This document shows, piece by piece, positions 2,190-40,900 of a DNA stretch of 64,000 nucleotides (its first letter is position 1; each line of letters opens with the position of its first letter). A model generated the notes under the pieces. It saw nothing but the letters and a program-made list of their open reading frames with translations. It ran no database searches and was not told where the DNA came from. Origin of the DNA: Candidatus Poribacteria bacterium (lineage in GTDB: Bacteria; Poribacteria; WGA-4E; WGA-3G). Location: NCBI GenBank assembly GCA_022827885.1, contig JAJEIP010000072.1, forward strand, positions 16,508 to 80,507, given 5' to 3'. The translations under genes were made by a program, and so were the position numbers.

Positions 2190-2274
2190 GCCTGCAACAA
2201 CGGCGCAGGCGGGACCTCTAAAAGGAACGTATAAACAAGACCCGCGATGTTTAACCGCAAGGTAAAATTAAAAG
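2190..2274 (+). repeat. Composite dispersed repeat: GCCTGCAACAACGGCGCAGGCGG hairpin module, a 42-bp spacer, then the CCGCAAGGTAAAATTAAAA start-proximal element
   Basis: The 23-mer at 2190-2212 is identical to the one at 45145-45167. In both places the CCGCAAGG element follows exactly 42 bp downstream (2255-2274 and 45210-45229). Confidence 0.7.
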
Positions 2275-5200
2275 CCTTAAAAACGCAAAGTCTGTTGTTA
2301 AAAACTGGGATCATCTTTATCATTGCCCTCTGTTCATCGTCTGAAGTCGTCGTCAGTCGTATTGCCGAAGAAGAGACTGAACCTAAGAATAATCATCAGT
2401 CGTCAGTCGTAGGGGTTGGGTCACCCAACCCTTACAGAGATGATTCTGTTGAACAGGAATCCTCTTTAACGGATAACCGAGAACCGACGACTGAAAACGC
2501 TAAAAATGGATTTGGGTTATTCACCCGCAACCTCTTCGACAATGATAGCGAATCAAAGCACTTCATTTGGCAAGAGAAAAAAGAACAAATCGAGGTTCCT
2601 GAGCAGACAGCGGAGGAAGACCTCCTCATCCAACCCTACCTCGACAGTCTCCGGCACTGGCGGTATCCTCCCCATTTAACCGATCTCGATAAACTCTATG
2701 ACTGGAAACCAAGAGCGAAGCGTGACGAAAAAGGCATCGCTCTCCCGATGGATTCCAATCTCAGGATAACAGGTTTGCAATCTGTAACCGTAGAGGCAAA
2801 CAGGACCCACTACTTCGGTGACGGCGATCTGAACCGATACGGGGGTTACGGCTATGGTGGCGGATATGGAGGCTACTCATCAGGACTTGACTTGGGGCTC
2901 ACCTCGTCTTACGGTTACGAAGACTTCGGTTACGGCAGCAGCGGTTTTGGTGGCGGATACGGTTCAGGATATGGAAGTAGTTACGGTAGTTATGGTTCCA
3001 GCTACGGTTCGAGCTACGGCGGGTTCGGGGGTGGATACGGCAGTAGCGGTGTTCCACGCGCAAGTGGGTTTAACCTACGTCAAATACAGCAATTTGGGCT
3101 ACACGGTCGCGTGGGGCAACGGACGCATATCGCTGTAGACTATAGTGCTGGCGGCAGCGGCTTCGGTAGCGGTGGTTATGGCGGTGGATATGGTGGATAC
3201 GGCGGTGGGTACGGCGGCGGATATGGCATCGGCGGCACCAAGGAACAGAAGATTAAAATCTGGTACGAAGGGACACCCGAGAGTATAATAAAAACCATCT
3301 CCTTTGGCGACATCACACTCAGTTTACCGAATACCCGTTTTCTGAACATCAATCGGAATCTGTTTGGACTTGAAGGCGTCTTTGAGTGGAAAAACACACG
3401 TCTGACGGCGTTCGGTTCTCGGAGTAAGGGAATACGCGAGGTGCGTACGTTCCGGGGGCAGTCGCGGCGCGCTGGTGGCGGATACGGTTATGGACCCCGC
3501 GGGATCCAGATACCGGATACCAACTACGTTAAAAATCGGTTCTACCACATCCAAAAAGGTGAAGACGGCGAACTACACGACGCATATCTCCCTATCAAAT
3601 CAGGGAGCGAGCAAATTTTCATTGACGACGGCGTCGTCGGAAACAATCAGGGCGGTCAACGAACGAGTCGCGGCTACTTCAATCCCCAATACTCCGGTCA
3701 GGACTACAATATTGACTATGAAACCGGTGAAATAGAATTCCTATCTCCGATTTCTGCAAATTATACCATCGTCGTCTCGTATGAATATTTAGGCGGTGAT
3801 GGCGGCATCGTTGGTAAATCTGAAGTCTTTGTTGATGAAAACGGAGACGGAACACTTGACGAAGAGGGTGAGGAAATCGGCTATGTCGTGCTAAAAGAGA
3901 AGGGATTTCGCGGCACAGAGGCAACACACGTCTATAGCCTTGGCAACCGCAACATTAATCCACGTGACTTCACACTCACACTCCTCCGACAAGGACAGAG
4001 CGAAACCTTCCAGACGAATACCCGCTCTGTTCCGTATCTCGAAATTTTTGGGTTGGATCAGAACAGTGATGGTATTGTAGATGCCCAGTTTATAGACTAC
4101 GACAGAGGCTTACTCCGTTTCCCCACGACGGATCCGTTTCAAATTGTAGACCCAGCCCATCCATATTACGATTACCGCGATTCACTCAACAACACTGCCA
4201 TCTACCTCGAAGGTGTCCGAACAGATGCCCAAGTCTACACGATTATCGCGGACTACGCGTATCAATCAGAAACGTACAATGTAGGTTTGTTTGTGATTCC
4301 AAACAGTGAGACAGTCCGATTGAACGGGCAGCTCTTGACGCGCGATACCGACTATATGATGCTTTATGAGGTCGGTACTCTCCGATTCTTCAGACAACTC
4401 GATGAGTTTGATGAAATCGTTGTGGAATTTGAAAAGACACCCTTTGGTGGTTCATCACAACAAGCTGTAGCCGGCGTCTGGTTAGAGTACACACGCAAAC
4501 AGGAACCCAAATCCGATAGAGAACAGAGCCTTGAGGACAGATTCAATCGGTTAGGGGGCCTTCAAACAATGGACGCAGATATGCTGGGTGAAGGAACGGA
4601 TGCCTTCGGTAGAGGCGTGTCAGGGGGATTTCAACAGAGGAGCGGCGGTTTAGGGGGTTTCGGGAGCGGTTCTCGCTTCGGTAGGAGCAGTTTCGGGGGT
4701 GGATTCGGTGGCGGTTACGGCGGGGGTTATGGCGGCTACAGTAGTTTAGGCGGTCGCTCGCGAAGCTACTACGGTAGTTATGGCGGCGGAATGAACTATT
4801 TCAACCCGGTTTTTCAAAAGGGATTTTCGCTCTCAACGGGTTATATTCTGAACACCGGACAAAAACCAGCGGAAATACCAGATGTGAATAGCGTGCCAAA
4901 CCGCTTGCAAGCGTTCAACGTGAATACGAGTTTTGGACGGGAATTTAACGTCGCTGGTATTTTAAACCTATTGCCCTTTATTAACGTGAGAAACCTGCCA
5001 CTTTCAGTTGACTTCAGTGGAGAAGCGGCTTATTCACACAACAACCCAAACAGTATTGGCGTCGCGCTTATTGATAGCATGGAAGGGGCAAAGGACTCAA
5101 CGACCGTGCCGACATTAAAATACAATTGGAAACCGAGTAGTGTTCCATACGTATCGGAAAATGCACCAATACCGTCTGGAGATTCCGGTTACTACGTTAT

Positions 5201-8200
5201 ACCGACCGACGAGAATAGAGTGATCTTTAACGTTGTGCTGAAAGACAAAAACGAAACGGAAGCAATAGGCAACTATATGCGGAACCGCGATGTGCCAGCC
5301 TCATCAATTCAACCGCTCTCTCTCTCGACTGAAGAACGCCTCATTATGGAACTCGGCTACAATTTCACAGACGTGATCGCCGAGTGGGGCGGTTTTTCAA
5401 ACGGTCTCTCGGCATCCGGGGTAGACTATTCGGAACGTAGCTTCGTTGAAATTTGGATGCGCGTCCAAGGCGACGACAATGTGACGCTCCACTTGAATCT
5501 CGGGGTGGTGAACGAAGATACAGATGCCGACGAACGACTGGATAGCGAAGATCTCCCAGAAACGCTAACGGATACGAATGGAGACGGAAGTATTGATGCA
5601 TTGGATTTAGACCTGGAGAACCTTTCAGAGATCAATCGCTATCGTGGGAACGGCGCGCTCGATACAGGTGAAGACATCGGATGGGGACATAACGGGCCGC
5701 TTGAAAGAACATCTATCGGCGTAGGCAACCAGATTCTGGACAGCGAAGACCTCAACGGTGATGGGGTCCTTGATAGTATAGACGCATATTTTGAGGTAGC
5801 GATCCCACTCAATGAGATTCCGAAAGAATGGGTTAAAAGCAAAAATGCAAACGGTTGGATGTTCCTCAGTATTCCACTCTCTAAATTTAAGCCAGAGGGG
5901 TCTCGCCTGCCGAGTCTCGTTTTCGTGCAACACTTCCGATTCTGGTTGAGCAAAAACGCACCCGGTAATGTAGAAGGTTTATTGCAATGGGCGGATATTG
6001 AAATTGTTGGCAATAAATGGAAGCAGGGGATCATCACCCGGTCAAGTTCTGTAGGAGGGGTTTCTAACCCCGATTCCTTGGACGCCATAACGAACAACCC
6101 AGCACTCGCCTCGACCGGAAACACCTTGTCAACGAGTACAATTGTGGACGACACATTGGAAAAATTCATTGTTGGCACGAGGGATAACTTCAGTTATGAC
6201 GCGTATCAAAGTGCGTATCTGGATATCGAAGATAACGAGCTCTTCAAAAAATTACATCCATTCACAGCCACTTCACTCGGTTTTCAAACACAACAGCAAC
6301 GTGAACAGACACTGAGCCTCGAATATTACCTCTTTCCCGGCTCCTACGGTGTCACCTCGAAGCAATTGAAGGGCTTAACACAAAGTGAAGGACAAGATTT
6401 CAGCAAACACGATACACTTCGATTTTGGCTCTATGGGGACAAAAGCGACACAACCTTCGTTTTACAACTCGCGCCAACCGTCCGAACCGGCTATCGCAGC
6501 TCCTTCTATAGTTCAGATCCGTTTGTCAATCAGACAGAACAGGAAGAAGATATTAACGTTTTCGAGAATCTAACAGACTACTATGAATATACAGTCCCGA
6601 TTGACTTTGAGGGTTGGAAGTTAATTGAAATTGATTTGCGGGACCTTCGCAGAAACGACTATCCGGATGTTAATAGCGATCAACCATCTGTAGTCAGCAA
6701 TCAGCAAGAACCGGCTGCGGTAGAACCCCTTCCCACACCACCATCCGCCGAAATCGCAGAGGATGCCCCAGATGGACAGCCCGATGGTTTCACGATTCGC
6801 GGGAAGAATAGCATGCGGCTCTCCATCAAAAACATCGGCGGTATCCTCTTGGGTATACGGAACGATACTGGCGGTGAAATCAGTGGAGAAATCTGGGTAA
6901 ATGAGATTCATCTCGGTGATCCGCTCGTGCGTGCCGGATGGGCGCGTCGCGGTAATATGTCGGTGTCCCTCGGTAGAATTGTTAAATTACGCGGCGGCTA
7001 CGCAAGCCAAGACAAAGATTTTGAAAGCGGCGCGGGTGAAGTTGGTAGACAACGGCTCTCCTCACGCGGATATAGCACGACAAATAACGATTTTAATATC
7101 GATGCAGATGTTACGCTATTTCCATGGCTGCCGATCCGATACGGGATCCGACAGCAAGACACGGAAACCGAGAGCCAGCGCGGTAGCTACAGCAGCTTCC
7201 AGAGCGGGAAAAGTGAAATCCGTACCCGAGACATTTCTGTGCAGTTCATTCAAAACCCGTATCCGAATCTCGGCTTTGCTTACAACTACCAAGACTTTTG
7301 GAACGAACGTCAAGGCACACAAATTAGCCACCTTTATACGGGTAGCTTACGGTATGAACTCGGTTCAAAACTCGGGGTCAACGCGCAGTATCGGCACGAA
7401 GACATACTTGCCAAACCCGAAACGGCTACGGAGACAGCCTCGACTTCAACATCCTACTATAGTTACGGCTACGGTAGAAATCGAGATGAAAAAACAGATA
7501 GCGGCACCATAACATTTAATATTAATCCAACGAGTATCTTCAGTCTGAACCCCAGTTACGATGTCCGCCGGACGCTTGAAAGACGGGAAGATCCAAACGC
7601 CAGCACTTCACTTGCCGGCAATATAACGAATTTGGGTTTGGAAACCTCTCCCACAATCTCCGAATCCGAAGAAGAGACCCCCATCGAAGATGTTAAATGG
7701 TCAATTGCTGAGCGAGAACACCGATTGTCGCTGACCCCACGCTTAAACCGGGATCTGATCGGCATGCGCCCCACCGTAACAAGCCGTATGAGTTTTCGTG
7801 AAAACTGGTTCCGTGAACAGAAAAACGCTTCACTCAATGGAAACGTCAGTTTCGGCGTGAATCTCCGCGTTCAAAAATGGTTCGGATGGCTCCTCAAAGA
7901 AGGGAATGGAAGACAAGAAGAAGAGAAAGAGGGGGTACCGAACCTTCCAACCCCCGAACCTTCCAATCAAGAATCTCCTACGCTTCCAACGGATTCGGGG
8001 TTGGAAACCGATCCCGCGCCCACTCCTATAACTGATGACCTCAGTGCACAATTAAGGGAAAACGGTATTGACGAAACACAAATCCAAGAGTTAGAAGAGA
8101 ATCGGGGGGATTGGATCGAACGTGATAAAAGCGAGTTGCCACCTGTAGGCGCGAAAACCGGGGATAGCGGAACACAAGCGGGAACAGTTTCAGAGGTCAA

Positions 8201-9035
8201 GGACGGTATCCTGCATCGAATTCTGAAAAGTTTCACTGTTAACACCAACGCAAACTTCACCGCTACTGAATCGTATCGGCAACTTGCATCCGGCCTATCA
8301 ATGTTAGAAATCTATTCGCTCGCGGACGACGCAAAGGAACGGACAAACTCCCGGCGCAGCAATCGTTATACAGTACGGAGTTCGGTAGACCCGTGGAATT
8401 GGGCATCCTTCGGAACGAACCTCAGCACTTCCGACAGTTTCCGAAAAAGTTCAGGGACAACCTACATACAGAACACCAACGCTTATGAAGCCGACGTAAA
8501 ATTGAAAGCGCGAGAAACCTCCAGTTTTCAACTCCGCTACAGTTATACAACGCGAAATAATGGGACCCTGGATACTATACTCGGCGACAGCAAAGCACAT
8601 ACGCCTTCATTGAGTTGGATGCAAACATGGGGCAAGGAAACTCGGACAGCATTGGGGGTCCGGACTACGATTCGGGACCAACTACGGAGCGGTATTAGAA
8701 GCAATGCGCTCATCGTTACGCCAAACCTGAGTATTGAATACAAATACCACACAGAAAACGGCATACGGATACCGTTTTTCGGTAGAATCCCTTTGAAGCA
8801 CGATCTCGATTTAACCAATACCCTCTCTTGGGCTATCCGTAGAGAACAGTATGGTGCGAACCTTGAAGAGCGTTCAGAAAGATATGAAACCACCTTGCGC
8901 GTGGGTTACAAAGTCAGCACGCATATCACAGCGAATTTCCATCTCGGCTTGAGTTACAACCACGATAGGGTTGAAGAAGGCAGAGATTTTCTCTCCATCG
9001 CCACTGCACTCACCGTCCGCGGCGAAATCCAATAA
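2247..9035 (+). CDS. Giant (2262 aa) secreted/outer-membrane protein; candidate SprA/Sov-like T9SS translocon or giant surface protein
   Basis: It has a Lys-rich n-region and a hydrophobic h-region (signal peptide). There are two Gly/Tyr/Ser low-complexity blocks (GYGGGYGGY...). There are several DxNxDGxxD calcium-loop-like motifs (DENGDGTLDEE, DTNGDGSIDALD, DLNGDGVLDSID). The C-terminal third is amphipathic beta-strand-like. The size matches SprA (~2300-2500 aa). The start codon is uncertain because the start-proximal repeat overlaps the 5' end. Confidence 0.7.
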   Translation: MFNRKVKLKALKTQSLLLKTGIIFIIALCSSSEVVVSRIAEEETEPKNNHQSSVVGVGSPNPYRDDSVEQESSLTDNREPTTENAKNGFGLFTRNLFDNDSESKHFIWQEKKEQIEVPEQTAEEDLLIQPYLDSLRHWRYPPHLTDLDKLYDWKPRAKRDEKGIALPMDSNLRITGLQSVTVEANRTHYFGDGDLNRYGGYGYGGGYGGYSSGLDLGLTSSYGYEDFGYGSSGFGGGYGSGYGSSYGSYGSSYGSSYGGFGGGYGSSGVPRASGFNLRQIQQFGLHGRVGQRTHIAVDYSAGGSGFGSGGYGGGYGGYGGGYGGGYGIGGTKEQKIKIWYEGTPESIIKTISFGDITLSLPNTRFLNINRNLFGLEGVFEWKNTRLTAFGSRSKGIREVRTFRGQSRRAGGGYGYGPRGIQIPDTNYVKNRFYHIQKGEDGELHDAYLPIKSGSEQIFIDDGVVGNNQGGQRTSRGYFNPQYSGQDYNIDYETGEIEFLSPISANYTIVVSYEYLGGDGGIVGKSEVFVDENGDGTLDEEGEEIGYVVLKEKGFRGTEATHVYSLGNRNINPRDFTLTLLRQGQSETFQTNTRSVPYLEIFGLDQNSDGIVDAQFIDYDRGLLRFPTTDPFQIVDPAHPYYDYRDSLNNTAIYLEGVRTDAQVYTIIADYAYQSETYNVGLFVIPNSETVRLNGQLLTRDTDYMMLYEVGTLRFFRQLDEFDEIVVEFEKTPFGGSSQQAVAGVWLEYTRKQEPKSDREQSLEDRFNRLGGLQTMDADMLGEGTDAFGRGVSGGFQQRSGGLGGFGSGSRFGRSSFGGGFGGGYGGGYGGYSSLGGRSRSYYGSYGGGMNYFNPVFQKGFSLSTGYILNTGQKPAEIPDVNSVPNRLQAFNVNTSFGREFNVAGILNLLPFINVRNLPLSVDFSGEAAYSHNNPNSIGVALIDSMEGAKDSTTVPTLKYNWKPSSVPYVSENAPIPSGDSGYYVIPTDENRVIFNVVLKDKNETEAIGNYMRNRDVPASSIQPLSLSTEERLIMELGYNFTDVIAEWGGFSNGLSASGVDYSERSFVEIWMRVQGDDNVTLHLNLGVVNEDTDADERLDSEDLPETLTDTNGDGSIDALDLDLENLSEINRYRGNGALDTGEDIGWGHNGPLERTSIGVGNQILDSEDLNGDGVLDSIDAYFEVAIPLNEIPKEWVKSKNANGWMFLSIPLSKFKPEGSRLPSLVFVQHFRFWLSKNAPGNVEGLLQWADIEIVGNKWKQGIITRSSSVGGVSNPDSLDAITNNPALASTGNTLSTSTIVDDTLEKFIVGTRDNFSYDAYQSAYLDIEDNELFKKLHPFTATSLGFQTQQQREQTLSLEYYLFPGSYGVTSKQLKGLTQSEGQDFSKHDTLRFWLYGDKSDTTFVLQLAPTVRTGYRSSFYSSDPFVNQTEQEEDINVFENLTDYYEYTVPIDFEGWKLIEIDLRDLRRNDYPDVNSDQPSVVSNQQEPAAVEPLPTPPSAEIAEDAPDGQPDGFTIRGKNSMRLSIKNIGGILLGIRNDTGGEISGEIWVNEIHLGDPLVRAGWARRGNMSVSLGRIVKLRGGYASQDKDFESGAGEVGRQRLSSRGYSTTNNDFNIDADVTLFPWLPIRYGIRQQDTETESQRGSYSSFQSGKSEIRTRDISVQFIQNPYPNLGFAYNYQDFWNERQGTQISHLYTGSLRYELGSKLGVNAQYRHEDILAKPETATETASTSTSYYSYGYGRNRDEKTDSGTITFNINPTSIFSLNPSYDVRRTLERREDPNASTSLAGNITNLGLETSPTISESEEETPIEDVKWSIAEREHRLSLTPRLNRDLIGMRPTVTSRMSFRENWFREQKNASLNGNVSFGVNLRVQKWFGWLLKEGNGRQEEEKEGVPNLPTPEPSNQESPTLPTDSGLETDPAPTPITDDLSAQLRENGIDETQIQELEENRGDWIERDKSELPPVGAKTGDSGTQAGTVSEVKDGILHRILKSFTVNTNANFTATESYRQLASGLSMLEIYSLADDAKERTNSRRSNRYTVRSSVDPWNWASFGTNLSTSDSFRKSSGTTYIQNTNAYEADVKLKARETSSFQLRYSYTTRNNGTLDTILGDSKAHTPSLSWMQTWGKETRTALGVRTTIRDQLRSGIRSNALIVTPNLSIEYKYHTENGIRIPFFGRIPLKHDLDLTNTLSWAIRREQYGANLEERSERYETTLRVGYKVSTHITANFHLGLSYNHDRVEEGRDFLSIATALTVRGEIQ
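2415..2433. repeat. Palindromic element GGGTTGGGTCACCCAACCC embedded in-frame in the giant ORF
   Basis: It is a perfect 9-N-9 palindrome. The reverse-complement copy with the same flanks (CCCCTACG) lies intergenic at 29384-29401. It encodes VVGVGSPNPYR. Confidence 0.6.
6054..6077. repeat. Palindromic element GGAGGGGTTTCTAACCCCGATTCC embedded in-frame in the giant ORF
   Basis: The same 24-mer family occurs twice in the GH2 gene and once, degenerate, in the PorU-like gene. It encodes GGVSNPDS. Confidence 0.6.
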
Positions 9036-16364: not shown

Positions 16365-16442
16365 TATTTTTTATAAGTAATGATTTTTTCATAAGTTCAT
16401 AAGAATGGTATCATGATTTTATCATAGTTTCTTACAGGAAAT

Positions 16443-18200: not shown

Positions 18201-18352
18201 CTCGCGAATTCAAGAAGAGGTTAAGCAGGATCAAAAAGTTGTTAACGATATGCGAGAAAATTATTAACTCCAGAAAAGTTACGAGACCCAAAAATTTAGG
18301 TACGCTGCCGAAACGAAAAATGTTATCAATCTAATGTTACGCTCTCAAACAC

Positions 18353-19705: not shown

Positions 19706-19716
19706 ATAAATAAAAA

Positions 19717-20223: not shown

Positions 20224-20375
20224 CAAAATTGTTGAAATAAGGTACAATTCAATTACGTTAAGTAACGTAGCACGTAAGGAGGTACACAAGGAATTTTGAA
20301 AAAAAAATAGGGGTGCTAACCCTACTAAAAATTCCCACTGCAAAGCAAACCATGCCCGTTAGGGTAATTTAATAG

Positions 20376-22904
<2,529 letters not shown>

Positions 22905-22928
22905 CAGTTATCAGTACCGAAAACTACC

Positions 22929-25475: not shown

Positions 25476-25548
25476 ACATATCACGCCTCTGGCGTGCGGA
25501 TTGTCAAGTGAGAAGCTACAAGGAAACATTTTACCAGAGGAATAAACG

Positions 25549-29221: not shown

Positions 29222-29269
29222 TTATATCTTGCGGGGAAAGTGCATTACGACCTTTACGTGTATTCTTTA

Positions 29270-29460
29270 AATTCGCCTGCGTGTATTTGCTCGGGTGTTT
29301 CTGCGTATTTTTGCGTATTGTTGCAGGCGATCGTTTTTGATGTACAGATATATAACTCAGTCACACACTGTAACGGTTGGGTAACCCAACCCCTACGAAC
29401 CTGCCCGAAATGAAATTATGCCTTAAATGGCATAATTTGCCTTTGCTTTACATTTAGAGG
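29270..29460. repeat. Mosaic of dispersed repeat modules in one intergenic region
   Basis: CGCCTGCG...TGCGTATTGTTGCAGGCG matches 54757-54776. The GGTTGGGTAACCCAACC palindrome matches 2415-2433. The ATTATGCC-N6-GGCATAAT hairpin plus AAATGTAAAGCAAAG is the reverse complement of 15780-15830. Confidence 0.6.
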
Positions 29461-29486
29461 GCAGCCCAGGAGGCCATAGTTAAAAA

Positions 29487-30449
29487 ATGCAACCTACACT
29501 CTATGCTGGAACCATTGGACAAAGTGTCTGGCGCAGTACTGACAACGGAGACACATGGCGCAGGGCGAGTAATGCGCTTTTTCCAGAAGCCGACGTTCGC
29601 GCCATAGCAGTTAATCCAAGCAACTCAGACGTTCTCTATGCCGGGACCGAAAAAGGTATCTTCCGATCAAACGATGCCGCCGAATCATGGCATCGTCTCT
29701 CAAGTCCTATGGATGAATTGGAAGTTTGGGCGATCGCTATTGATCGAGGGACGCCGGACACACTCTACGCGGGTACGTGTCCTTCCGCGCTTTTCAAATC
29801 CACTGACGGTGGTGATAACTGGAAACAACTCAACGCTGATCTCGCACAAGAATGCGAAGGGGTCCCGATTATTCCGCGTGTCACGACCTTTGTGATTGAT
29901 CCCGAAGATTCGCAAACGCTCTATGCTGGAATTGAGATTGATGGCATGCGCCTTAGTACAGACGGTGGCGACACGTGGGTTGAACGTAGTGAGGGGCTCA
30001 GTAGCCTCGATATCCACGGACTCTGCGTGGTTCCGGGTTCACCCAAAACGATCATCGCTGCGACAAACAATGATGTTTGCGTAACGACAGACATGGGGCA
30101 ACAGTGGACACCACTAAACGTCAAGGCACACTATCCATGGCCCTATTGCCGCGCAGCATTTTTCCTCAACGGCGATGCCGGTCAGGTCTTTATCGGTGCT
30201 GGGAACGGTCCTCCCGGTGATCAAGGCGGGATCTTCTCGACGCGTGATGCTGGAAAGACGTGGAACCGAGCGGACATCGGTAGAACAGCAAATAGCACAA
30301 TCTGGTGTTTTGCTCATAATCCGCAGTTTGATGACCTTCTTATCGCTTGCAGCGTGAGTGGACAACTCTACCGTAGTACAGATTCGGGTAATTCGTGGAC
30401 CAAGCTTGATCACGAATTTGGCGAAGTTCGAGCATTGGCTATCGGTTAA
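29487..30449 (+). CDS. BNR/Asp-box repeat beta-propeller protein (Ycf48/sialidase-like fold)
   Basis: Six S-x-D-x-G-x-T-W repeats are present (STDNGDTW, SNDAAESW, STDGGDNW, STDGGDTW, TRDAGKTW, STDSGNSW). There is no signal peptide. Confidence 0.7.
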   Translation: MQPTLYAGTIGQSVWRSTDNGDTWRRASNALFPEADVRAIAVNPSNSDVLYAGTEKGIFRSNDAAESWHRLSSPMDELEVWAIAIDRGTPDTLYAGTCPSALFKSTDGGDNWKQLNADLAQECEGVPIIPRVTTFVIDPEDSQTLYAGIEIDGMRLSTDGGDTWVERSEGLSSLDIHGLCVVPGSPKTIIAATNNDVCVTTDMGQQWTPLNVKAHYPWPYCRAAFFLNGDAGQVFIGAGNGPPGDQGGIFSTRDAGKTWNRADIGRTANSTIWCFAHNPQFDDLLIACSVSGQLYRSTDSGNSWTKLDHEFGEVRALAIG

Positions 30450-30453
30450 AGAC

Positions 30454-30483
30454 TTGACTTATTTCTGTAATTTATGGTATGCT
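30454..30483 (+). promoter_or_regulatory. Sigma70-like promoter TTGACT-N18-TGGTATGCT (extended -10)
   Basis: It has strong consensus hexamers. It is followed by a ~280-nt structured untranslated region before the lipoprotein gene. Confidence 0.4.
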
Positions 30484-30777
30484 GTTGGTAAAATGTAGGG
30501 CACAAGCGAATTGTGCTTTGATCGCACAGTTCGGTTTCCAATATATGGGCGCGATCGCTGAATCGCGCCCATGGTGAAACGGGTTTACCCATCTGATCGT
30601 CGGGAAACCGAAACCCTTCGCGCCCAAGACATCGAACATGCCGACGAGATTTTTAAGTGGACGCAAGCGCATCAGAAATCTCGCGAGTTATAGATTGGGA
30701 TGGGAGACAGAATTTCTGACCCAGTCTACAAAAATTTGGCTTTCAAGTTACGCCCAAAATATAGGAGGCATACTTCA

Positions 30778-31566
30778 GTGGCACGTTTCTTTACACTTTT
30801 ATTTACATCGCTTCTCTGCATCACAATGATAGGGTGTAGTGGTGATGGTGGTGATGGTTATGAGAACATTGATATCCCACCCCCGATCAGTGATGCAAAG
30901 CGCATTGCAATTGTCCCATTCTTTGCCAAAACAGGAGCATCAGAAGACGTTGAAAAGTTAGCTGGACGCATCGGCGTAAACCTTGCAACCCGTCTGGAAC
31001 TGATATTCAAAGAGGCAGAATGGATTTATGACATCTCAAACAAGGTTCAACCGGTTGCAGACAAACTCACGGAGTTAGGCTTAACGCCGGAGCAAGTCTA
31101 TGGAGATCCTGCTTTGGCAGCAAAACTCGGACAGGAACTCGGCACCGATATGGTTATCATCGGAAGTGTCGAAGAACCGAAGATAACCGATCAGGACTAC
31201 AACCAACTTCTTATGAAACAGGGTAGACAAGGTGGGATTTCCGGTACATCCACCTATATTCGCACCCGCCTTACTGCCAGGGGACTGACTCGCGTCAGAG
31301 TCATTGATGCCAACTCCAATAAGATTATTTTCAACAACCGTGTCGGATCGTATCTCAAGTATTGGTACGCCTATCAGACCCAGCAGAGCGAACAGCAAAT
31401 ATTTAAGAGCCGGATGGATAGGCTTGCCGATTTAGGTCAATATCTCCCGCTCAGAATCGCTTATGTTCTCCATCCAACTGGGTTAAAGTTAGAACCCGAA
31501 GAGCAGATTCTGCTTAAACCGGACATGGTGCTCAAAGGGACAGGCGGTATTGTTGAGTTTAATTAG
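30778..31566 (+). CDS. Lipoprotein of unknown function
   Basis: A GTG start at 30778 lies 7 nt after an AGGAGG RBS. The lipobox is LCITMIGC|SGDGG. The longer track ORF from 30700 lacks an RBS. Confidence 0.6.
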   Translation: MARFFTLLFTSLLCITMIGCSGDGGDGYENIDIPPPISDAKRIAIVPFFAKTGASEDVEKLAGRIGVNLATRLELIFKEAEWIYDISNKVQPVADKLTELGLTPEQVYGDPALAAKLGQELGTDMVIIGSVEEPKITDQDYNQLLMKQGRQGGISGTSTYIRTRLTARGLTRVRVIDANSNKIIFNNRVGSYLKYWYAYQTQQSEQQIFKSRMDRLADLGQYLPLRIAYVLHPTGLKLEPEEQILLKPDMVLKGTGGIVEFN

Positions 31567-31632: not shown

Positions 31633-32103
31633 TTAAGGTGAATGATTCACAAAGAAATTTTCGAGTTGGTGGGTGTAGGCTTCACCGTACTTCAAAAGTT
31701 GGAGCGCGGCATCATACAGTTCGGAAAGCGCGAGTTCTTGGTAGGGATTCGCGATTTTTTCATAGAAATCTAAAGCCTTGATGAAAAAATCTAAGGTTTC
31801 CTGATCAATTACACCGTTTTGATATAAGGCACGGAAGCTTTGATGTTTCTGCTGTGGCGGTGTCTGGCCGCTAAATTCGATAATAACGTTGTTGATGTCC
31901 ACAGTACGCTGAATAATCATAAGGAAGCAGCTTTTAACATAAGAGTGTGTAATCCTGTCCGCTTCAATATATTCTTCTTGATCTGCTGGCAGCCCATACC
32001 GTAATTGGTCAAAACATTCATTTATAGATTCCAATTTCGCTTTTACTGGGTTGAAGCGGCGATTCGCAGTTTTCTTTGCGTTTCTAACCTTCCTTTTTCC
32101 CAT
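31633..32103 (-). CDS. Hypothetical protein (156 aa), basic N-terminus, orphan
   Basis: It is a clean ORF with an AT-rich upstream region and no recognisable motifs. It converges on the lipoprotein gene. Confidence 0.45.
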   Translation of the reverse strand: MGKRKVRNAKKTANRRFNPVKAKLESINECFDQLRYGLPADQEEYIEADRITHSYVKSCFLMIIQRTVDINNVIIEFSGQTPPQQKHQSFRALYQNGVIDQETLDFFIKALDFYEKIANPYQELALSELYDAALQLLKYGEAYTHQLENFFVNHSP

Positions 32104-33314: not shown

Positions 33315-33340
33315 CGGAGTTGAGAGTAGAGGGGCCTTTG

Positions 33341-33375
33341 GAAAGTCCACACGGACTTTCTCCTTCTCTCTCAAA
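33341..33375 (+). terminator. Candidate intrinsic terminator hairpin GAAAGTCC-ACAC-GGACTTTC followed by a pyrimidine-rich tract
   Basis: It is an 8-bp perfect stem about 27 nt after the stop of the quinone oxidoreductase gene. The U-tract is weak (TCTCCTTCTCTCTC). Confidence 0.3.
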
Positions 33376-33448: not shown

Positions 33449-36400
33449 ATGCTATTCTCAAAACAGATAGGAACGGGGCACAAACCTGTATATGCTTTAT
33501 TCAAGTTTGGTATTCTACTGGGCATCTATGTTCTCATCTTTGTAGGAGAGGTTTGTGCGGAAATCCGCAGCAAAAACACCCAGCAAAAACACCCCGATTC
33601 TTTCGCAAAGATTACCCAAACGACATCAACAGACGGAATCACTCTTCAATTCACCTTGCCGGAGCTGACTGTATCTGAGGTAATCCGGAATAATGTCCGG
33701 TACCAAGAGGTGCGTTACGCCGAGTGTCACTTCACCGATGAACCAGGAAACCCCAAAGTTCCTGTTACACGCCTCATGCTCGGTATACCCGCGACGGCTA
33801 CAATTGAAGCAGTTGATGTCTCTGCTGCGTCTGCTGAGACACGCACCGGCGTGCGTCTCATTCCAGTTCCGATTTTTGATATACATGAACGCAATTCACA
33901 ACACGCAGCTTCGCAGCGCTGGTCAGAAAGCGGGAGCGCATATCGGTTAAAAGAAAATGGCGCGTTTGCTGGAAACCGTTCATACCCTGGACATCCGCTT
34001 GCTCGGATCGTGCGCGAAGGCTATATTCGGAATCAACGTGTCATCGCGTTGGCACTATATCCAGTGCAATATCTGCCGAACACCCGGACACTGCATTTGT
34101 ATTCACGTTTCACAGTGAACATTCGTTTCTCCTATACGGAGCAGGGAGGACCGCTAACAGCACAAGGGAGCGGTTCACAAATTTTCCCTGTCCAAGGGAC
34201 AATTGCCCCAGAATCGGAGGCGTTTGAGCGTGCATTTTCACATCAACTCTTAAACGCTGAGCAAGCCGCCCGTTTTCGAGCACCCCGTCCACTGGTACCT
34301 GCAGCACCAACACTCATACCCAACGGCGGTGATGGAACACGTTATAAGTTGTCTGTCCAAGAGACAGGTATCTATGCGGTGACAGCAGCATCTCTTCAGA
34401 ACGACTGGGGTATAGATCTCATCGGCACGCATCCGACAAGATTGCGACTCACACAAGGAAACAGAAACATTCCTATCTACATCAGCGGTGCGGCGGATGG
34501 AAGTTTTGACCCGAACGATGCTATCTTTTTTCTCGGGCATAAGTCTAAAAATCGGTATAGTCGTTGGAATGTCTATTGGCTCACGATTGACAATAGTGCC
34601 ACACCTACCCGCCTTCCGGCACGGGTGCCACAGATTACCGCCAGCCCCACAGACCAAACGGCGACACAGGTTCCCACCTTCCGTTCTAAAGTGGATTTTG
34701 AAGAGGATCATCTGACGAGTAACCTCGAATTTGTCTATACTGAGACTGTTTCACCTGGTGACAAGCACGGTTGGTTTGATGCTTTGGACTTCTGGTACTG
34801 GGACGGTATAAAGAATGGGGGGGATGCCGCCGAGATGCGTCTCGAATTCCCGCTCTATGATGTCGCAAAAAGTTTCGATCCACCACGTATCTCCGTTGAT
34901 TTACAAGGCGGCACACCGGTATCACACGAGATTTTGGTCGCTATTAATGGAGTCCGGATCGATTTTGCCGAGTGGGAACAGCAAGACACACTCACCATTG
35001 GACGCACATTGCGCACTTGGGATACCCTTAAGGACAGCGTCAAAGGCGAACAGAACGTGTTGTCTTTAGCCAGAGTTGACAGCAACGTTGATGAGGATAC
35101 CACCCGATACCCCTATCATGTCTACCTCAACCGTTTTTCTGTCGAGTATACTCGTCTTTTCCGAGCTGTTGCTGACGAGTTATGGTTCAGATCACCCACT
35201 GCCGATGCAACCTCCCAAGAGCGAAAACTCCCTGGAGGTCGTAAACTCCAGTATAAAATTGAGGCGTTCCGGGACCCGGGGATACATATCTTTGAGACGG
35301 ATGGGACATACCTGACTGCCCAGATGCAAGGTGTGAATGTGGAAGTAGATGTGGAAGGGGTTTCTAACCGCGATTCCTATAATGCGCTTTTCCAAGTACC
35401 CGATACTCGAAGCACCCAATTTATCGCCGTTTCCAATACGGCGTTGCGTCAGCCTGATCGCGTTGAGGTCGTTGTACCTACGGGCTTAGCGACTGCAGCG
35501 CAGGGTGCTGACTATCTAATTGTGGCACACCCTAACTTCCTTTCTGCCGCCCAACGATTGACAGCGTGGCGATCGACACCTGGCGGGGGCGGATACCGCA
35601 CCAAAGTTGTTACAACCGATGATATTTACAATACCTTTGGGGATGGCGGTGTCAATCCGAAGACTATTAAGGCGTTTCTAAAGCATGCGTTTCAGTCTTG
35701 GACCGCGCCAGCACTAACCTATGTAGTCCTCTTTGGCGATGGCACCTTCGATTTTCGAGGCATTGACACGGATATTTATGCTGAACCGCCGGAGCTGGCT
35801 GGATACATTCCAACCCATTATATACGAACCGATTCCTTCGGACGGACCGCGGCAGATCATTGGTATGCGACCGTTTCCGGACACGATGAATTCACGGATT
35901 TCTATATAGGTAGGCTCAGTGTTGAGACTCCCGATCAAGCGGATGCAGTCGTTGACAAAATCATCGCCTACGAACAAGCACCGCCTAACGGGGACTGGCG
36001 GCGAAGAATTATTTCTGTTGCCGACGACGAAGTTAGTAACTCTGGAGATTTTATTTTTAAGAAAAGCCTTGATGAAATAGCGAAAGATCACACCCGCCTT
36101 GGATACGAAACGGTTGAGGTGTTCCTTGAAGATGTTATTGACCAAGTGGAAGCACATCCGGCGGATTACCCAGGACTCTTGCCCCAACGCGTGGCGAAAG
36201 ATCAAATCATTGAGGCACTTGGAGAGGGGGCTGTACTAGCACAATATGCCGGGCACGGCGGCAGAATCGTCTGGGCGCACGAAGCCATCTTTGATAATGC
36301 CTCTGTTGACCAAGTTGAGGAAACCGATAAAATCCCTTTCATGTTGGTTCTGAGTTGTTATAACGGCTATTTTGACAAGCCCGGTGAACCGAGCATGGCG

Positions 36401-39400
36401 GAGAAATTGTTACGTAAAGAGAGAGGCGGTATCATCGGCATGTTGAGTGCAACCCGTCTCACATACGGCAGCGGAAACGACGCTCTCAACCGTATCATTT
36501 TCGACATGCTCTTTAAACGGAACATCCGGCAACTCGGTCCCTTGAGTTTCGATTCAAAGGTTGAACTTTTGATGACAGAAGGCACGGGTCAAATTGATAT
36601 TATGATGGAATATACGCTTTTCGGTGATCCTGCCCTACAAATTGCTATCGCTAATGGTGAAATTCAACCTACTGTTGAGACGAAAACAGTTGCCCCTGGG
36701 GATACCCTCCGAATTGCAGGGGGACACGTCCAGACTGCCACTTACGACGCCGCAAGTCGAACAAAACGTTTTGTTACCGATACCTCTTTTAACGGCACAC
36801 TCACCGTTAAAGCTTTGTTTCCTGGGAGAACAGCTACCGCTCAAGGTGTTGCGGGTCCAGTGAAATACTACACTGGAGACGTGATTCTCACGAAAACGGC
36901 AAATGTTAACCGTGGTGCTTATCCTGCTTTGACTTTTTCTGTTCCGAAAAACATTGACAGCGGTGATGCCCATGTCGAGTACTACGCGCAAAGTAACACA
37001 ACTGTTGCTGTCGGTGGCGATGGATTTACCGTCAACATCCCCAAAATCCTCGACATTAAACCCGAGTTAGTCGATGAAGGCAAGTTCCGCATCTCTGTTC
37101 AGGTTTCCGATGAAAAAGAAGAACTGTTCCTGGTGCTCTTGGAGTGGCGTAATCCACAGAGTCGAGCGTGGGAGAATGTCCGGCTCGTTCCCGCCGATCC
37201 CCCGTTGTCGGAAGACGGATGGTGGACGGTGCCTGAACCTCTAAACGCGCCTATAGATGGTTCCTCTATCCGGTATAATCTTCAAGTCACGGATATAGAC
37301 AACAACACGGTTACAAGCGACAGACTTCAATATTATCCCTACGTATATCCTAATCTTACCATTGTAAAGATTGATAGAACTGACAGGGTTGGGTACGGTT
37401 ACAACACTAAAACGGAGCAATGGTATCTCTCGGCGGATGTACAGGTAGAAGGCGAAGGCATAGAGATCCCTATTGAGGTCGCTTTTTTCAGCGGCAATCC
37501 AGATGTTAACGATGATATGCTTGTTGACAACGATGTGAATCTCATCGGAACTACCCGAATCCAGCCCAACGACTGGGTGCAACGCACGCCGTTGGCGAAC
37601 CCCGGTACAAAGAAGGATGTTTATGAACCGGATCCGTTGAATACACTCCCAATTGCAACCGCTACTTTAAATCTGAAAGACTCGTTACCTCTCGGCACAC
37701 ACGACATATTCGTCTATATTGATGTGATAGAAACTGAAGCGGATCAGCCGGGTGATGTCCTTGAAAACGATGAGGAGGACAATATCGCTTACCGACGACT
37801 CTTTGTCGATATAAATGCGGTGGGAACGACTTCTTCAAGTCAGGTCACCAGTTTGGACCGGAATTGCATGATCACTGTTCCGCCTGGTGGTTTCCAAGAA
37901 GCAGCAGTGCTGGCAGTCCGTCCGTTAGATGAACGAAAGTTTCTGGAAACTGTAGGGGCGGGCTCTCTTGATACGACTCCGAAAGCCTCATCTTTCCGTA
38001 GTGGCGAGGGCACCTTGCCCTTACAGGGAATGTCCAAACGGGCACCACTTCCCGGTATCTCCGCTTACGGATATGAGATTGTTGTTGGTGAGCGTAGTGG
38101 CGAGGCAGCCTCGTCTGCAACAGACGTTATTAAACTTACCTCCTCGGTGGCGATCGACTTAAGCTTTGACCTCGGTGCTCTCAGAACCCAACTCACGCGA
38201 GAATTGTTGGGTGGCACGGAATCCGAAGACACACCTTTGGAAGAGGGACCCGATGAATTTGGGGTTGCAGATACAATTGACACCGCCATTGCATCCCGGG
38301 CACGTGAGTTGGGTGTTTATATGTTTAACTCGACACTCGGAAATTGGACGCGGCTTCCTTCTCAACAACTTGCCGATGCTACGGGGACGTTACAACAGCG
38401 GATACAGGTAACAAACGTGAGTGAGGATAACGTTGGCGAAAGCGCGCTTCGCGATGTTCGCGTCCAATCCGAAGGTGCTCGGACCGGCAAATACGTCCTC
38501 TTCTTCACGGGTCCTCAAACCTATCGGCTTTTCCTTGCGCCTTCAACAGATGACATACGGGTATTTGAACCCTTGGAAGTTATTGCATCCGCGGAGCAGC
38601 TTGGAAACTTTACTACGGACATCCCAAGCTCCAGACACGGCTTCTCGATTAATGTAGAACTCGATTTTGAAAAACCTTTTGTATTCGGGGATATCTTGAC
38701 ATTCAACATAACTTCGCTTGTACAATCAGTAGATGTTGAGCCAGATCTTGATGCCCCTCAACAAGAGGAGCGTTGGTATGCCTCTGGGTTCAGGGATACT
38801 AACCGAGGCACGGGTACCATCAGTTACGTTGAACTTCCGCCGGACACCACTATGCCGGAGGATAAGTGGATTATCTTCTTCCTGACGGATAGTGTTTTTC
38901 AGGTTGAAGGTGAGAGAACCGGTATTTTGCGTTCCCAAACTGATGGAAACCAGCCATTGCATGGAACGGTCGGAGAACCTTTCGATTATAAGTCCTACGG
39001 CTTGCGTTTTCAACTCACGCAAGGCGAACGCTCCTTTGCACCTGGTGATAGATTTCGGTTTCAAACCCGATCTGTCGGTACTATTCGAGCTACAACGGAT
39101 CGCCTTGGACCAATTACGCTGCTGTATACCGACGATACTGTGCCACCAGATATACAACTCACTATCGGCAATCAACAACACTTTGTTCCGGGGGATGCAA
39201 CAGATTCGGAACCGCTCATCGGGGCAACATTAACTGACCTAAGTGGACTTGATTATCTCACGCGTCCGCTGCTATTGGAAATTGGAGATTCGTTCGGTGA
39301 ATATGAGCGCATTAAGCCGGAGGCGTATCAAGTGACACATCATCCCGGTTCAAATCAACTCGTTTTAACATATCCGTCTCCGGAGCTTGAACCGCGGGAA

Positions 39401-39772
39401 TATGAGGTTCGCCTAACTGCAAGCGATGTCCATGGAAATACGGATACAGTGAACATCACATTTCGAGTCCATGATACTTTACAACTGCTATCGTTTCTTA
39501 ACTATCCAAATCCTTTTCCGCGCAAAACAACGCTCACCTGCGAATTAACAGCCCCTGCTGATTCACTGGTTGTGAAAATCTATACGCTGAGTGGAAGACT
39601 GATCCGGGAGCTCGCTATGCCACCAACACCTGGGTTTCTTATGGTGGAATGGGATGGCAGAGATGCTGATGGCGTTGAGGTGGCAAATGGCGTTTACTAT
39701 GCTAAACTCCGAATCCAGCGCGAGGGTGAAAAAGATATAACCGAAATACTTAAAATGATGAAATTGCGTTAA
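33449..39772 (+). CDS. Giant (2107 aa) gingipain-like C25 cysteine peptidase with T9SS C-terminal sorting domain (PorU-like)
   Basis: It has a signal peptide. The C25 catalytic dyad regions are YAGHGGRIVW (His) and PFMLVLSCYNGYFD (Cys); compare gingipain YTGHGS and ACVNGDF. The C-terminus has the canonical Por_Secre_tail motifs (LNYPNPFPRKTTL...KIYTLSGRLIREL...WDGRDADGVEVANGVYYAKL). Confidence 0.85.
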   Translation: MLFSKQIGTGHKPVYALFKFGILLGIYVLIFVGEVCAEIRSKNTQQKHPDSFAKITQTTSTDGITLQFTLPELTVSEVIRNNVRYQEVRYAECHFTDEPGNPKVPVTRLMLGIPATATIEAVDVSAASAETRTGVRLIPVPIFDIHERNSQHAASQRWSESGSAYRLKENGAFAGNRSYPGHPLARIVREGYIRNQRVIALALYPVQYLPNTRTLHLYSRFTVNIRFSYTEQGGPLTAQGSGSQIFPVQGTIAPESEAFERAFSHQLLNAEQAARFRAPRPLVPAAPTLIPNGGDGTRYKLSVQETGIYAVTAASLQNDWGIDLIGTHPTRLRLTQGNRNIPIYISGAADGSFDPNDAIFFLGHKSKNRYSRWNVYWLTIDNSATPTRLPARVPQITASPTDQTATQVPTFRSKVDFEEDHLTSNLEFVYTETVSPGDKHGWFDALDFWYWDGIKNGGDAAEMRLEFPLYDVAKSFDPPRISVDLQGGTPVSHEILVAINGVRIDFAEWEQQDTLTIGRTLRTWDTLKDSVKGEQNVLSLARVDSNVDEDTTRYPYHVYLNRFSVEYTRLFRAVADELWFRSPTADATSQERKLPGGRKLQYKIEAFRDPGIHIFETDGTYLTAQMQGVNVEVDVEGVSNRDSYNALFQVPDTRSTQFIAVSNTALRQPDRVEVVVPTGLATAAQGADYLIVAHPNFLSAAQRLTAWRSTPGGGGYRTKVVTTDDIYNTFGDGGVNPKTIKAFLKHAFQSWTAPALTYVVLFGDGTFDFRGIDTDIYAEPPELAGYIPTHYIRTDSFGRTAADHWYATVSGHDEFTDFYIGRLSVETPDQADAVVDKIIAYEQAPPNGDWRRRIISVADDEVSNSGDFIFKKSLDEIAKDHTRLGYETVEVFLEDVIDQVEAHPADYPGLLPQRVAKDQIIEALGEGAVLAQYAGHGGRIVWAHEAIFDNASVDQVEETDKIPFMLVLSCYNGYFDKPGEPSMAEKLLRKERGGIIGMLSATRLTYGSGNDALNRIIFDMLFKRNIRQLGPLSFDSKVELLMTEGTGQIDIMMEYTLFGDPALQIAIANGEIQPTVETKTVAPGDTLRIAGGHVQTATYDAASRTKRFVTDTSFNGTLTVKALFPGRTATAQGVAGPVKYYTGDVILTKTANVNRGAYPALTFSVPKNIDSGDAHVEYYAQSNTTVAVGGDGFTVNIPKILDIKPELVDEGKFRISVQVSDEKEELFLVLLEWRNPQSRAWENVRLVPADPPLSEDGWWTVPEPLNAPIDGSSIRYNLQVTDIDNNTVTSDRLQYYPYVYPNLTIVKIDRTDRVGYGYNTKTEQWYLSADVQVEGEGIEIPIEVAFFSGNPDVNDDMLVDNDVNLIGTTRIQPNDWVQRTPLANPGTKKDVYEPDPLNTLPIATATLNLKDSLPLGTHDIFVYIDVIETEADQPGDVLENDEEDNIAYRRLFVDINAVGTTSSSQVTSLDRNCMITVPPGGFQEAAVLAVRPLDERKFLETVGAGSLDTTPKASSFRSGEGTLPLQGMSKRAPLPGISAYGYEIVVGERSGEAASSATDVIKLTSSVAIDLSFDLGALRTQLTRELLGGTESEDTPLEEGPDEFGVADTIDTAIASRARELGVYMFNSTLGNWTRLPSQQLADATGTLQQRIQVTNVSEDNVGESALRDVRVQSEGARTGKYVLFFTGPQTYRLFLAPSTDDIRVFEPLEVIASAEQLGNFTTDIPSSRHGFSINVELDFEKPFVFGDILTFNITSLVQSVDVEPDLDAPQQEERWYASGFRDTNRGTGTISYVELPPDTTMPEDKWIIFFLTDSVFQVEGERTGILRSQTDGNQPLHGTVGEPFDYKSYGLRFQLTQGERSFAPGDRFRFQTRSVGTIRATTDRLGPITLLYTDDTVPPDIQLTIGNQQHFVPGDATDSEPLIGATLTDLSGLDYLTRPLLLEIGDSFGEYERIKPEAYQVTHHPGSNQLVLTYPSPELEPREYEVRLTASDVHGNTDTVNITFRVHDTLQLLSFLNYPNPFPRKTTLTCELTAPADSLVVKIYTLSGRLIRELAMPPTPGFLMVEWDGRDADGVEVANGVYYAKLRIQREGEKDITEILKMMKLR
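35353..35377. repeat. Degenerate copy of palindromic element (GGAAGGGGTTTCTAACCGCGATTCC) in-frame in the PorU-like gene
   Basis: It has one mismatch in the stem. It encodes EGVSNRDS. Confidence 0.5.
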
Positions 39773-39805
39773 TGGTTGTTAGTTCGAATAACCGATAACA
39801 AAGAA

Positions 39806-40900
39806 ATGAAACATCTTAAAAAAAATATCTTCTATTTTCTGGTGTGTGTAATTACGTTCTGCGTGATGGCTCTCCAATCCGCTGAGGCGAGATACACTGC
39901 TGATTTCCTAACACTTGGGGTTGGTGCTCGCGCACTTGCTATGGGCGGTGCCGGGACTGCTCTGAGTGACAATGCTTACGCGCCGTATTGGAATCCTGCT
40001 GGATTGGGACAGCTCACTCGATATGAAGTCAGTTTCATGCATTCCACGCTCAATGGAGAAGATGCTTACGATTTCGCCAGTTTTGTGGTGCCGCTTGCAA
40101 ACCACAACTTGCAAGACAAAAGTCATCCACTGAAAAAACGAGGCGCAATCGGTGTCAGTTGGCTCCGCGTTGGTGTTGACGATATCCCTATTACCAGTCT
40201 GCCTGTGGTCAGTCGTCCTGTTGGACCTATGAACCGTCCAGAGGTTGTAGGGTCTTTCAATAATACCGATAACGCCTTTCTCTTTGCTAACGGCTGGAGA
40301 TTACCTGCTTTTCGTGGGATTCATTTACATCTCGGCGGGACACTCAAACTTCTCTATATGAGTGGGTATCGAAGCACAAATGCCATCGGTGGCGGCGCAG
40401 ATGTCGGTATTATTGCGATGACAAACCCAGAGAAATCTCATCAACTCATTCTCGGATTGCAGGCGAGCGATGCCTTTACGACAAAACTCTATTGGAATAC
40501 ACCGCCACAATCGTCAGATCAGACATCCCACACGGAAACAATATTGCCACACCTGAAGATTGGTATTGCCACGATACACTCGCTCCCTATCTTCCGAAGT
40601 ACACTCATTCTTGCCCTGGATACCTACATCCAAAATCAGGGTCAATCTCAAGTCGAGGAACCGCAGGGAAGTCCTGTTGAGTTACATGCAGGTGCCGAGT
40701 GGACGCTTTTCGATCTGCTTGCCTTGCGAATTGGAATGGCAGAACGGAGTGGGAGTCTTGAGAGTGTTCGTCAACTGACAGCAGGGGTTGGGTTGAACCT
40801 CCGATTCGTCACCGGGGCAGGTGCAGGATTAGACTATGCGTTTGCGAACCACCCAGCATTAGGGGGTAGTCATCGCATATCCCTCAGAATTCGGTTTTAG
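39806..40900 (+). CDS. Outer-membrane beta-barrel protein, PorV/PorP-SprF-family-like (T9SS-associated)
   Basis: The ATG at 39806 gives a classical signal peptide (MKHLKKNIFYFLVCVITFCVMALQSAEA|RY). The N-terminal motif is LGVGARALAMGGAGTALSDNAYAPYWNPAGL. It ends in ...RIRF (terminal Phe). It lies 30 bp downstream of the PorU-like gene, as in porU-porV pairs. Confidence 0.5.
   Translation: MKHLKKNIFYFLVCVITFCVMALQSAEARYTADFLTLGVGARALAMGGAGTALSDNAYAPYWNPAGLGQLTRYEVSFMHSTLNGEDAYDFASFVVPLANHNLQDKSHPLKKRGAIGVSWLRVGVDDIPITSLPVVSRPVGPMNRPEVVGSFNNTDNAFLFANGWRLPAFRGIHLHLGGTLKLLYMSGYRSTNAIGGGADVGIIAMTNPEKSHQLILGLQASDAFTTKLYWNTPPQSSDQTSHTETILPHLKIGIATIHSLPIFRSTLILALDTYIQNQGQSQVEEPQGSPVELHAGAEWTLFDLLALRIGMAERSGSLESVRQLTAGVGLNLRFVTGAGAGLDYAFANHPALGGSHRISLRIRF

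Follow-up and report, generated by a model that had tools for sequence, protein, structure and literature searches.

The secretion system of type IX (T9SS) is described as restricted to the Bacteroidetes/Bacteroidota or to the superphylum of Fibrobacteres, Chlorobi and Bacteroidetes (FCB). In the Poribacteria, Kamke et al. (2014) reported the sorting-domain family TIGR04183 on many eukaryote-like proteins, especially WD40 proteins, and, across six single-cell genomes, did not find structural genes of the Por system. A 64,000-nucleotide stretch of Candidatus Poribacteria DNA (contig JAJEIP010000072.1 of assembly GCA_022827885.1, positions 16,508 to 80,507; hereafter the window, to which all unprefixed coordinates refer) raises the question of whether such machinery is encoded in this phylum. 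At 33449-40900 it carries a gene for a 2107-aa protein of the gingipain family (C25) followed by a gene for an outer-membrane beta-barrel protein, which a preliminary description had likened to the porU-porV arrangement, leaving open whether the pair belongs to a divergent T9SS or whether the large product is a giant surface protease bearing a C-terminal domain (CTD). The analysis presented here indicates that the two genes probably correspond to porU and porV in Poribacteria and make up the module that processes cargo in a divergent T9SS with a SprA-like candidate pore. Such a candidate PorU/PorV/SprA module, its PorU being of double length, is new for a phylum placed outside the FCB group; the literature searched on Poribacteria and T9SS machinery yielded incidental co-mentions only and no paper linking the two.

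The PorU-like protein and its PorV-like neighbour

The PorU-like gene spans 33449..39772 on the forward strand (2107 aa, stop codon included), and its product contains a Peptidase_C25 domain (Pfam) at aa 689-1064 (E 1.4e-83). The motifs YAGHGG and LSCYNGYFD, previously read as the C25 catalytic dyad, bear that reading out in alignment: His936 (codon 36254..36256, forward strand) aligns with the YAGHGG histidine, and Cys970 (36356..36358, forward strand) with the catalytic cysteine, of Porphyromonas gingivalis PorU, the T9SS C-terminal signal peptidase or sortase (PG0026/PGN_0022; MEROPS C25; PDB 6ZA2; NCBIfam NF033707), the two proteins sharing the dyad in its YAGHGG and xxC contexts. PorU orthologues conserve, in addition, an arginine 32 residues past the catalytic cysteine, which gingipains are without (Gorasia et al. 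2015, PMC4560394). The window protein has this PorU signature residue as Arg1003 (36455..36457, forward strand), the counterpart of PorU Arg722, at a position where RgpB has Ile. His936, Cys970 and Arg1003 are invariant in 8 orthologues, with identity down to 54%.

Similarity to PorU extends well beyond the peptidase domain. The NF033707 model (T9SS_sortase PorU; 1095 positions, curated cutoff 420 bits) matches the large protein with 397.1 bits (E 1.4e-118) and covers 857 positions, aa 296-1191 corresponding to model positions 5-861, and the NCBIfam 'PorU2' model gives merely 156 bits. On the same PorU model, relatives of the protein score 421.1 bits (P0332, orthologue-type), 398.2 bits (P0339) and 360.8 bits (P0362). 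The best match among solved structures is P. gingivalis PorU itself (6ZA2; 124.7 bits, E 1.5e-35), and the alignment runs in the same order through two blocks, aa 658-1197 with PorU 376-923 and aa 1893-2097 with PorU 931-1145 (i-E 8.7e-8). Matches to gingipains, the C25 proteases that are T9SS cargo, are weaker (RgpB 54 bits, Kgp 19.5 bits). The C25 fold, the N-terminal propeptide and the C-terminal sorting domain are common to gingipains and the window protein, but gingipains possess neither the signature arginine nor the PorU-type flanking domains, and identification of the large protein as a gingipain was rejected on the basis of these scores and the presence of Arg1003.

The protein is indeed about twice as long as PorU, as the preliminary description had it (2107 aa versus 1156 aa in the 6ZA2 chain). 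PorU domain order is nevertheless kept along the whole length of PorU, including the penultimate domain and the protein's own sorting-type domain, with one 695-aa break, and the doubling is thus explained by an N-terminal extension of about 295 aa, which lies outside the PorU model, and a single insertion of about 695 aa. The extension begins with a predicted Sec signal peptide (33449..33559, forward strand; approximately aa 1-37, ...LIFVGEVCA/EI, read from the translation), the least conserved part of the protein, and contains a gingipain-type propeptide domain (33581..34141, forward strand; aa 45-231; Pfam Propeptide_C25, E 2.7e-18) in a region also matched by the Kgp prodomain 5MUN (E 1e-3). 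It is followed by the PorU core (34334..37039, forward strand; aa 296-1197), comprising the N-terminal PorU domains, the C25 domain and the subsequent beta domains. The beta-rich insertion (37040..39124, forward strand; aa 1198-1892) falls between the positions of PorU residues 923 and 931, and the remainder (39125..39769, forward strand; aa 1893-2107) consists of the penultimate PorU-type domain and the C-terminal sorting domain, the latter at approximately aa 2013-2107. By analogy, the putative propeptide probably holds the PorU-like enzyme latent until export, as a form of zymogen control. When the insertion alone was compared with 1.84 billion representative proteins, 48 matches were found, and the full-length ones were all in proteins of 1880-2160 aa with the same architecture and with the insertion at the same position; the giant PorU-like architecture is confined to one small family. 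Beta structure predominates in an AlphaFold2 model of the insertion, which has a mean predicted local distance difference test (pLDDT) score of 49, and is confident for the first ~100 aa, which form a beta-sandwich. The insertion probably constitutes a stalk or a binding module.

The C-terminal region had been called a textbook T9SS CTD. Its motifs (NYPNPF...IYTLSGRL...WDGRD...ANGVYY) uphold that description, and Pfam FlgD_ig matches at aa 2027-2087 (E 7.6e-10, 39 bits), but its TIGR04183 score, at 17.7 bits, does not reach the cutoff of 23 bits set for type-A T9SS sorting domains. In P. gingivalis, PorU retains its own CTD in the mature protein. Shared motifs combined with a score below the cutoff fit a specialised CTD of this kind, one that stays on the protein.

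The second gene of the pair (39806..40900, forward strand; 364 aa, ATG start, stop codon included) encodes a PorV/PorQ-family outer-membrane beta-barrel. The ATG at 39806 agrees with 364-aa homologues, the mechanically called open reading frame (ORF) beginning at a TTG at 39776. Both genes are co-directional, and 33 nt separate the stop codon of the first from the ATG of the second, slightly more than the 30 bp originally given. The other features reported for the barrel protein were found as described: a signal peptide, a terminal Phe and a GARALAMGGAGTA motif. The last aligns with the N-terminal region of PorV, the T9SS outer-membrane shuttle of Flavobacterium johnsoniae and P. gingivalis (also LptO; PDB 6H3I and 8GL6 chain F; NF033709/NF033710), with which the protein shares the general G-x-R-A-x-x-x-G pattern. 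Similar N-terminal motifs are common across the FadL-type barrel superfamily, and hence the motif alone is no proof of PorV identity. On profile models, the barrel obtains 86.6 bits (E 2.3e-24; cutoff 90) on the NCBIfam PorV/PorQ family NF033709, 111 bits (cutoff 325) on PorV2 NF052325, 35 bits (cutoff 220) on PorQ and 28.8 bits (cutoff 250) on the strict PorV model, as opposed to 13.5 bits (E 0.024; cutoff 29.7) on the Pfam FadL/Toluene_X family PF03349. An AlphaFold2 model built with 28 homologues is a beta-barrel (pLDDT 68, predicted template-modelling score 0.69), and a Foldseek search of the PDB with this model returned as best hits 8GL6_F (E 4.5e-10, template-modelling score 0.63) and 6H3I_F, both of them PorV chains of F. 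johnsoniae translocon complexes and both outranking OmpG, FadL and TodX. The possibility that the barrel is a FadL/TodX transporter, put forward originally as the finding that would undo the porV assignment, was therefore rejected. Likeness to PorV encompasses the signal peptide, the N-terminal motif, the barrel fold, the terminal Phe and the porU neighbour, whereas identity in the structural alignment is only ~14-15% and both the family and the strict PorV model score below their cutoffs. By sequence, the barrel is not separable from PorQ or from the NCBI 'PorV2'. NCBI itself applies the name 'PorV/PorQ family protein [Candidatus Poribacteria bacterium]' to two relatives, P0160 (80% identical) and P0232 (49%).

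Conservation of the pair was assessed in a homologue scan with one genome per species, which gave 149 relatives of the large protein. The best 80 of these 149 were examined; they are full-length, 44-96% identical to the window protein, and titled Poribacteria in 76 cases and 'uncultured bacterium' in 4. Among the matches listed (at least 120), the relatives are either ~2000-2190 aa long or fragments, and those with a named source come from Candidatus Poribacteria. The PorU-like orthologue group and its conserved synteny were present in 80/80 poribacterial loci recovered, and the PorU-like gene is followed immediately, in the same orientation, by the PorV-like gene in 83/84 poribacterial loci that are untruncated and have enough downstream sequence to judge. 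These results agree with the porU-porV arrangement proposed at the outset. A 4-bp overlap between the genes of the pair occurs in one divergent genome. L068 (OZ240245.1) is the sole locus of the 84 without a directly adjacent PorV-like gene, and a weak tblastn match occurs ~4 kb further on. A separate observation in one poribacterial chromosome is an IS605 OrfB/TnpB (Cas12f-like) gene inserted near the PorU/PorV locus (L002:23045-24217).

Along the large protein, identity peaks in the catalytic domain (>90%) and in the C-terminal 250 residues (~80%) and dips at aa 1450-1600. Every region is under purifying selection, with ratios of nonsynonymous to synonymous substitution rates (dN/dS) of 0.06-0.07 in the PorU core, 0.01-0.09 in the C-terminal domains, 0.14-0.19 in the insertion and 0.14-0.32 in the N-terminal extension. 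The values for the extension and the insertion indicate that the added parts are constrained and not junk. Regarding the host, NCBI taxonomy treats Poribacteria as a separate candidate phylum, and Kamke et al. (2014) placed it outside the Planctomycetes-Verrucomicrobia-Chlamydiae (PVC) superphylum, near Aerophobetes and Hydrogenedentes. Candidatus Poribacteria is placed outside the Bacteroidota and the FCB group.

The phylum also harbors another giant C25 protein, a paralogue of ~2100-2160 aa in which propeptide, C25 domain, insertion and CTD are arranged alike. Its gene (L091:8001-14492, contig JAJEBZ010000103.1; also present in L090 and L095) adjoins lon, S4 and pdxA and is not followed by a PorV-like gene. 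The paralogue P0362 shares 25% identity with the window protein across 2047 aligned positions and possesses both the dyad and the arginine; it occurs together with an orthologue of the window gene in one metagenome-assembled genome (MAG), on separate contigs. With 438.8 bits, the paralogue-related P0345 lies above the PorU cutoff. Other distant members have a PorV-like gene 1 kb downstream in some instances and none in others.

A SprA-like candidate pore and sorting-domain cargo

The preliminary description had left it to be seen whether other T9SS core genes and further CTD proteins accompany the pair, and candidates for both were found. Within the window, 24 kb upstream of the pair, a gene at 2247..9035 (forward strand) encodes a SprA/Sov-like giant outer-membrane protein of 2262 aa, a candidate translocon. 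Its sole NCBIfam match is TIGR04189 (SprA/Sov; 139 bits, E 8e-41, cutoff 200), and the match is made up of four collinear stretches, the model being 2319 positions long. The protein resembles the SprA/Sov translocon (PDB 6H3I chain A) in size and in collinearity, but differs from it in the strength of the match, which remains below the cutoff both for the window protein and for four relatives (164-187 bits). TIGR04189 is the sole significant family in these four relatives, save for a LysM domain in one. The SprA-like protein is conserved on contigs of poribacterial type and has 89 homologues, and all those with a named source are poribacterial; GenBank lists relatives as 'hypothetical' or 'LysM domain' proteins. 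The assignment as SprA-like is statistically significant, but appears weaker than the PorU-like and PorV-like ones. An N-terminal LysM peptidoglycan-binding domain is present in the distant relatives P0317-P0327, in which it constitutes a further difference from SprA/Sov; to our knowledge, such a domain is not known in Bacteroidota SprA. On a metagenome contig, the SprA-like gene adjoins a gene for a dockerin/cohesin protein of 900 aa whose C-terminal domain is of the FlgD_ig type (L089:6993-9695).

Candidate cargo was identified in a local profile search of the fetched loci, in which four proteins from poribacterial loci score above the TIGR04183 cutoff (24.8-38.1 bits). They are a trypsin-like serine protease, two beta-propellers and one small protein, and their C-terminal domain is strongly conserved (NYPNPFNPETWIPYQLA...IY...G.LVR.L...WDGRN..GE.VASG.YFYT...). 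The 64-kb window itself contains no TIGR04183-type cargo besides the PorU-like protein.

Sortase, surface protease or reduced system

Mechanistically, analogy with P. gingivalis and F. johnsoniae would have proteins with type-A sorting domains cross the inner membrane by the Sec pathway and exit via the SprA-like barrel. The PorV-like barrel would then hold the cargo by its sorting domain and pass it to the surface-exposed PorU-like enzyme, a putative cysteine transpeptidase or signal peptidase, whose predicted site of His936, Cys970 and Arg1003 would remove the sorting domain and may then attach the cargo to a glycolipid at the cell surface. For the large protein, the sortase is favoured as the predicted function over a giant CTD-bearing protease, because collinearity with PorU continues past the C25 domain, the signature arginine is present, PorU outscores RgpB (124.7 versus 54 bits) and the gene is linked to porV. 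It is on this evidence that, of the two options originally left open, a divergent T9SS is the better supported.

Several results weigh against a T9SS with a PorU-type sortase. All three candidates fall under the curated cutoffs of their families (397 versus 420 bits for the PorU-like, 86.6 versus 90 for the PorV-like and 139 versus 200 for the SprA-like protein). Searches of the PDB, solved SprA included, with the SprA-like sequence by itself, and with a profile built from 19 sequences, gave no match even at E 10. Within the 64-kb window, none of PorK/L/M/N, PorT, PorW, PorZ and PorQ was seen, and a protein with an FGE-sulfatase domain at 51668-53047 was rejected as GldK/PorK (122.7 bits versus a cutoff of 350), an EgtB match being as good. 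Secreted gingipain-like proteases, too, have a propeptide of gingipain type and an extended beta-rich region. In the MAG mentioned above, a PorV-less paralogue of the same architecture coexists with the orthologue, and the sortase role could fall to either paralogue or to both.

A number of these points feed the foremost competing explanation, in which the giant protein is a secreted or surface gingipain-like protease or an adhesin, cargo rather than sortase, and the barrel is its dedicated shuttle or anchor. The gingipain-type propeptide, the score under the PorU cutoff and the ~700 additional beta-rich residues, which recall the regions of adhesins, would all be in keeping with such a protein, but the arginine that gingipains are without is present and invariant, PorU outscores RgpB by the figures given above, and the PorU alignment runs far past the C25 domain and into the penultimate domain. 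The C-terminal sorting-type domain might likewise mark the protein as cargo, yet P. gingivalis PorU too has such a domain, and the dN/dS of 0.01-0.09 in this region is easier to reconcile with a structural domain that is kept than with a signal that is cleaved off. The existence of a paralogue that lacks a PorV neighbour shows the architecture to be independent of PorV; the orthologue group, for its part, is kept in all poribacterial loci recovered. On balance, we regard the protease or adhesin explanation as unlikely.

Another explanation accepts the sorting function and questions the remainder of the apparatus. It holds that Poribacteria possess a reduced sorting system limited to the SprA-like, PorV-like and PorU-like proteins, one that operates with no PorK/L/M/N motor and ring and is thus not a canonical T9SS. 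It would account for the absence of K/L/M/N-like genes, judged by the Pfam labels of loci retrieved by protein, both from the 64-kb window and from ~95 related-locus flanks, and it is compatible with the existence in NCBIfam of separate models for a 'PorU2/PorV2 putative sorting system', the barrel scoring best on PorV2. The gldKLMN genes, however, are normally unlinked to porUV and sprA, and for that reason the flanks carry little information on K/L/M/N. A reduced system would also fit the report of Kamke et al. (2014), in whose six single-cell genomes Por structural genes did not turn up. That negative result is weak, because PorU-like (4289-10420) and PorV-like (10515-11585) genes were overlooked on a contig of their own data set, ASZN01000109.1 (L057, from the single-cell genome WGA-3G). 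The candidate machinery has probably gone unrecognised because, in this window, its scores lie just under the cutoffs and because GenBank calls the relatives only 'hypothetical', 'C25 family peptidase' or 'LysM'. A reduced system strictly of this composition is, in our estimation, quite improbable. Somewhat better, but still doubtful, are the prospects of a stripped-down type IX-like pathway whose parts would be a pore resembling SprA, a shuttle resembling PorV and giant PorU-like enzymes, with no recognisable PorK/L/M/N. If it were true, the propeptide, the 695-aa insertion and the second paralogue would assume tasks that separate components, for example PorZ/PorQ or the anchoring machinery, perform in other systems, and the pathway would display the many eukaryote-like repeat proteins of the phylum to the sponge host. 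That the genes have no current function, being remnants in decay or having arrived recently by horizontal transfer, is a reading to which the sub-threshold scores on three curated models lend some color, but it has very little plausibility and was rejected, given the intact ORFs, dN/dS of 0.01-0.32 in all regions, synteny kept in 80/80 recovered loci at 44-96% identity and a base composition like that of the surroundings.

The window supplies concrete candidates for the pore, the shuttle and the processing enzyme of machinery reported missing from the phylum, and the way in which uncultivated sponge symbionts display host-interaction proteins on their surface becomes testable. The PorU-like protein, enlarged by a gingipain-like propeptide and a long insertion, is moreover informative on the evolution of PorU latency and cargo handling.

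Surroundings of the pair in the window

A terminator-like hairpin (33340..33361, forward strand; a pattern match from a consensus scan only) lies between an upstream Zn-dehydrogenase gene and the PorU-like gene, and the gene downstream of the PorV-like gene is convergent. The hairpin after the dehydrogenase gene and the convergent downstream gene suggest that the pair forms its own transcription unit.

Upstream of the pair, the block at 27347-31566 (forward strand) is conserved in several poribacterial genomes, with the same gene order in L001, L003 and L006. It encodes a 624-aa protein that bears the metalloprotease motif HEFQH (27347), a BNR/sortilin-like protein (29487) and a 288-aa lipoprotein with the lipobox LCITMIGC (30700). 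As possible T9SS parts these three neighbours were discarded, given that none matches a T9SS family. A HepT-like toxin gene follows at 31633-32103 on the opposite strand. Also discarded was the tetratricopeptide repeat (TPR) protein at 25549 as PorW/SprE, with 37.7 bits versus a cutoff of 250 and dozens of generic TPR matches. FGE-sulfatase-domain proteins like the one considered above as GldK/PorK occur fused to dockerin domains on a poribacterial-type contig (L002:4265-7607).

The region at 16000-25500 is a replication-origin neighbourhood, with dnaA at 16443, DciA at 19717, gyrB at 20394 and gyrA at 22929. A 450-aa RecF/SMC-like ATPase is encoded at 18353, dnaN is not between dnaA and this RecF-like gene, and G+C falls to 0.44 over 16-20 kb. 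The lowest G+C of the window, 0.42, is found at 55771-58210 (reverse strand), where a DNA methyltransferase gene (N6_N4_Mtase) is followed by one for a 375-aa protein without a family match; this segment may be a restriction-modification or mobile island.

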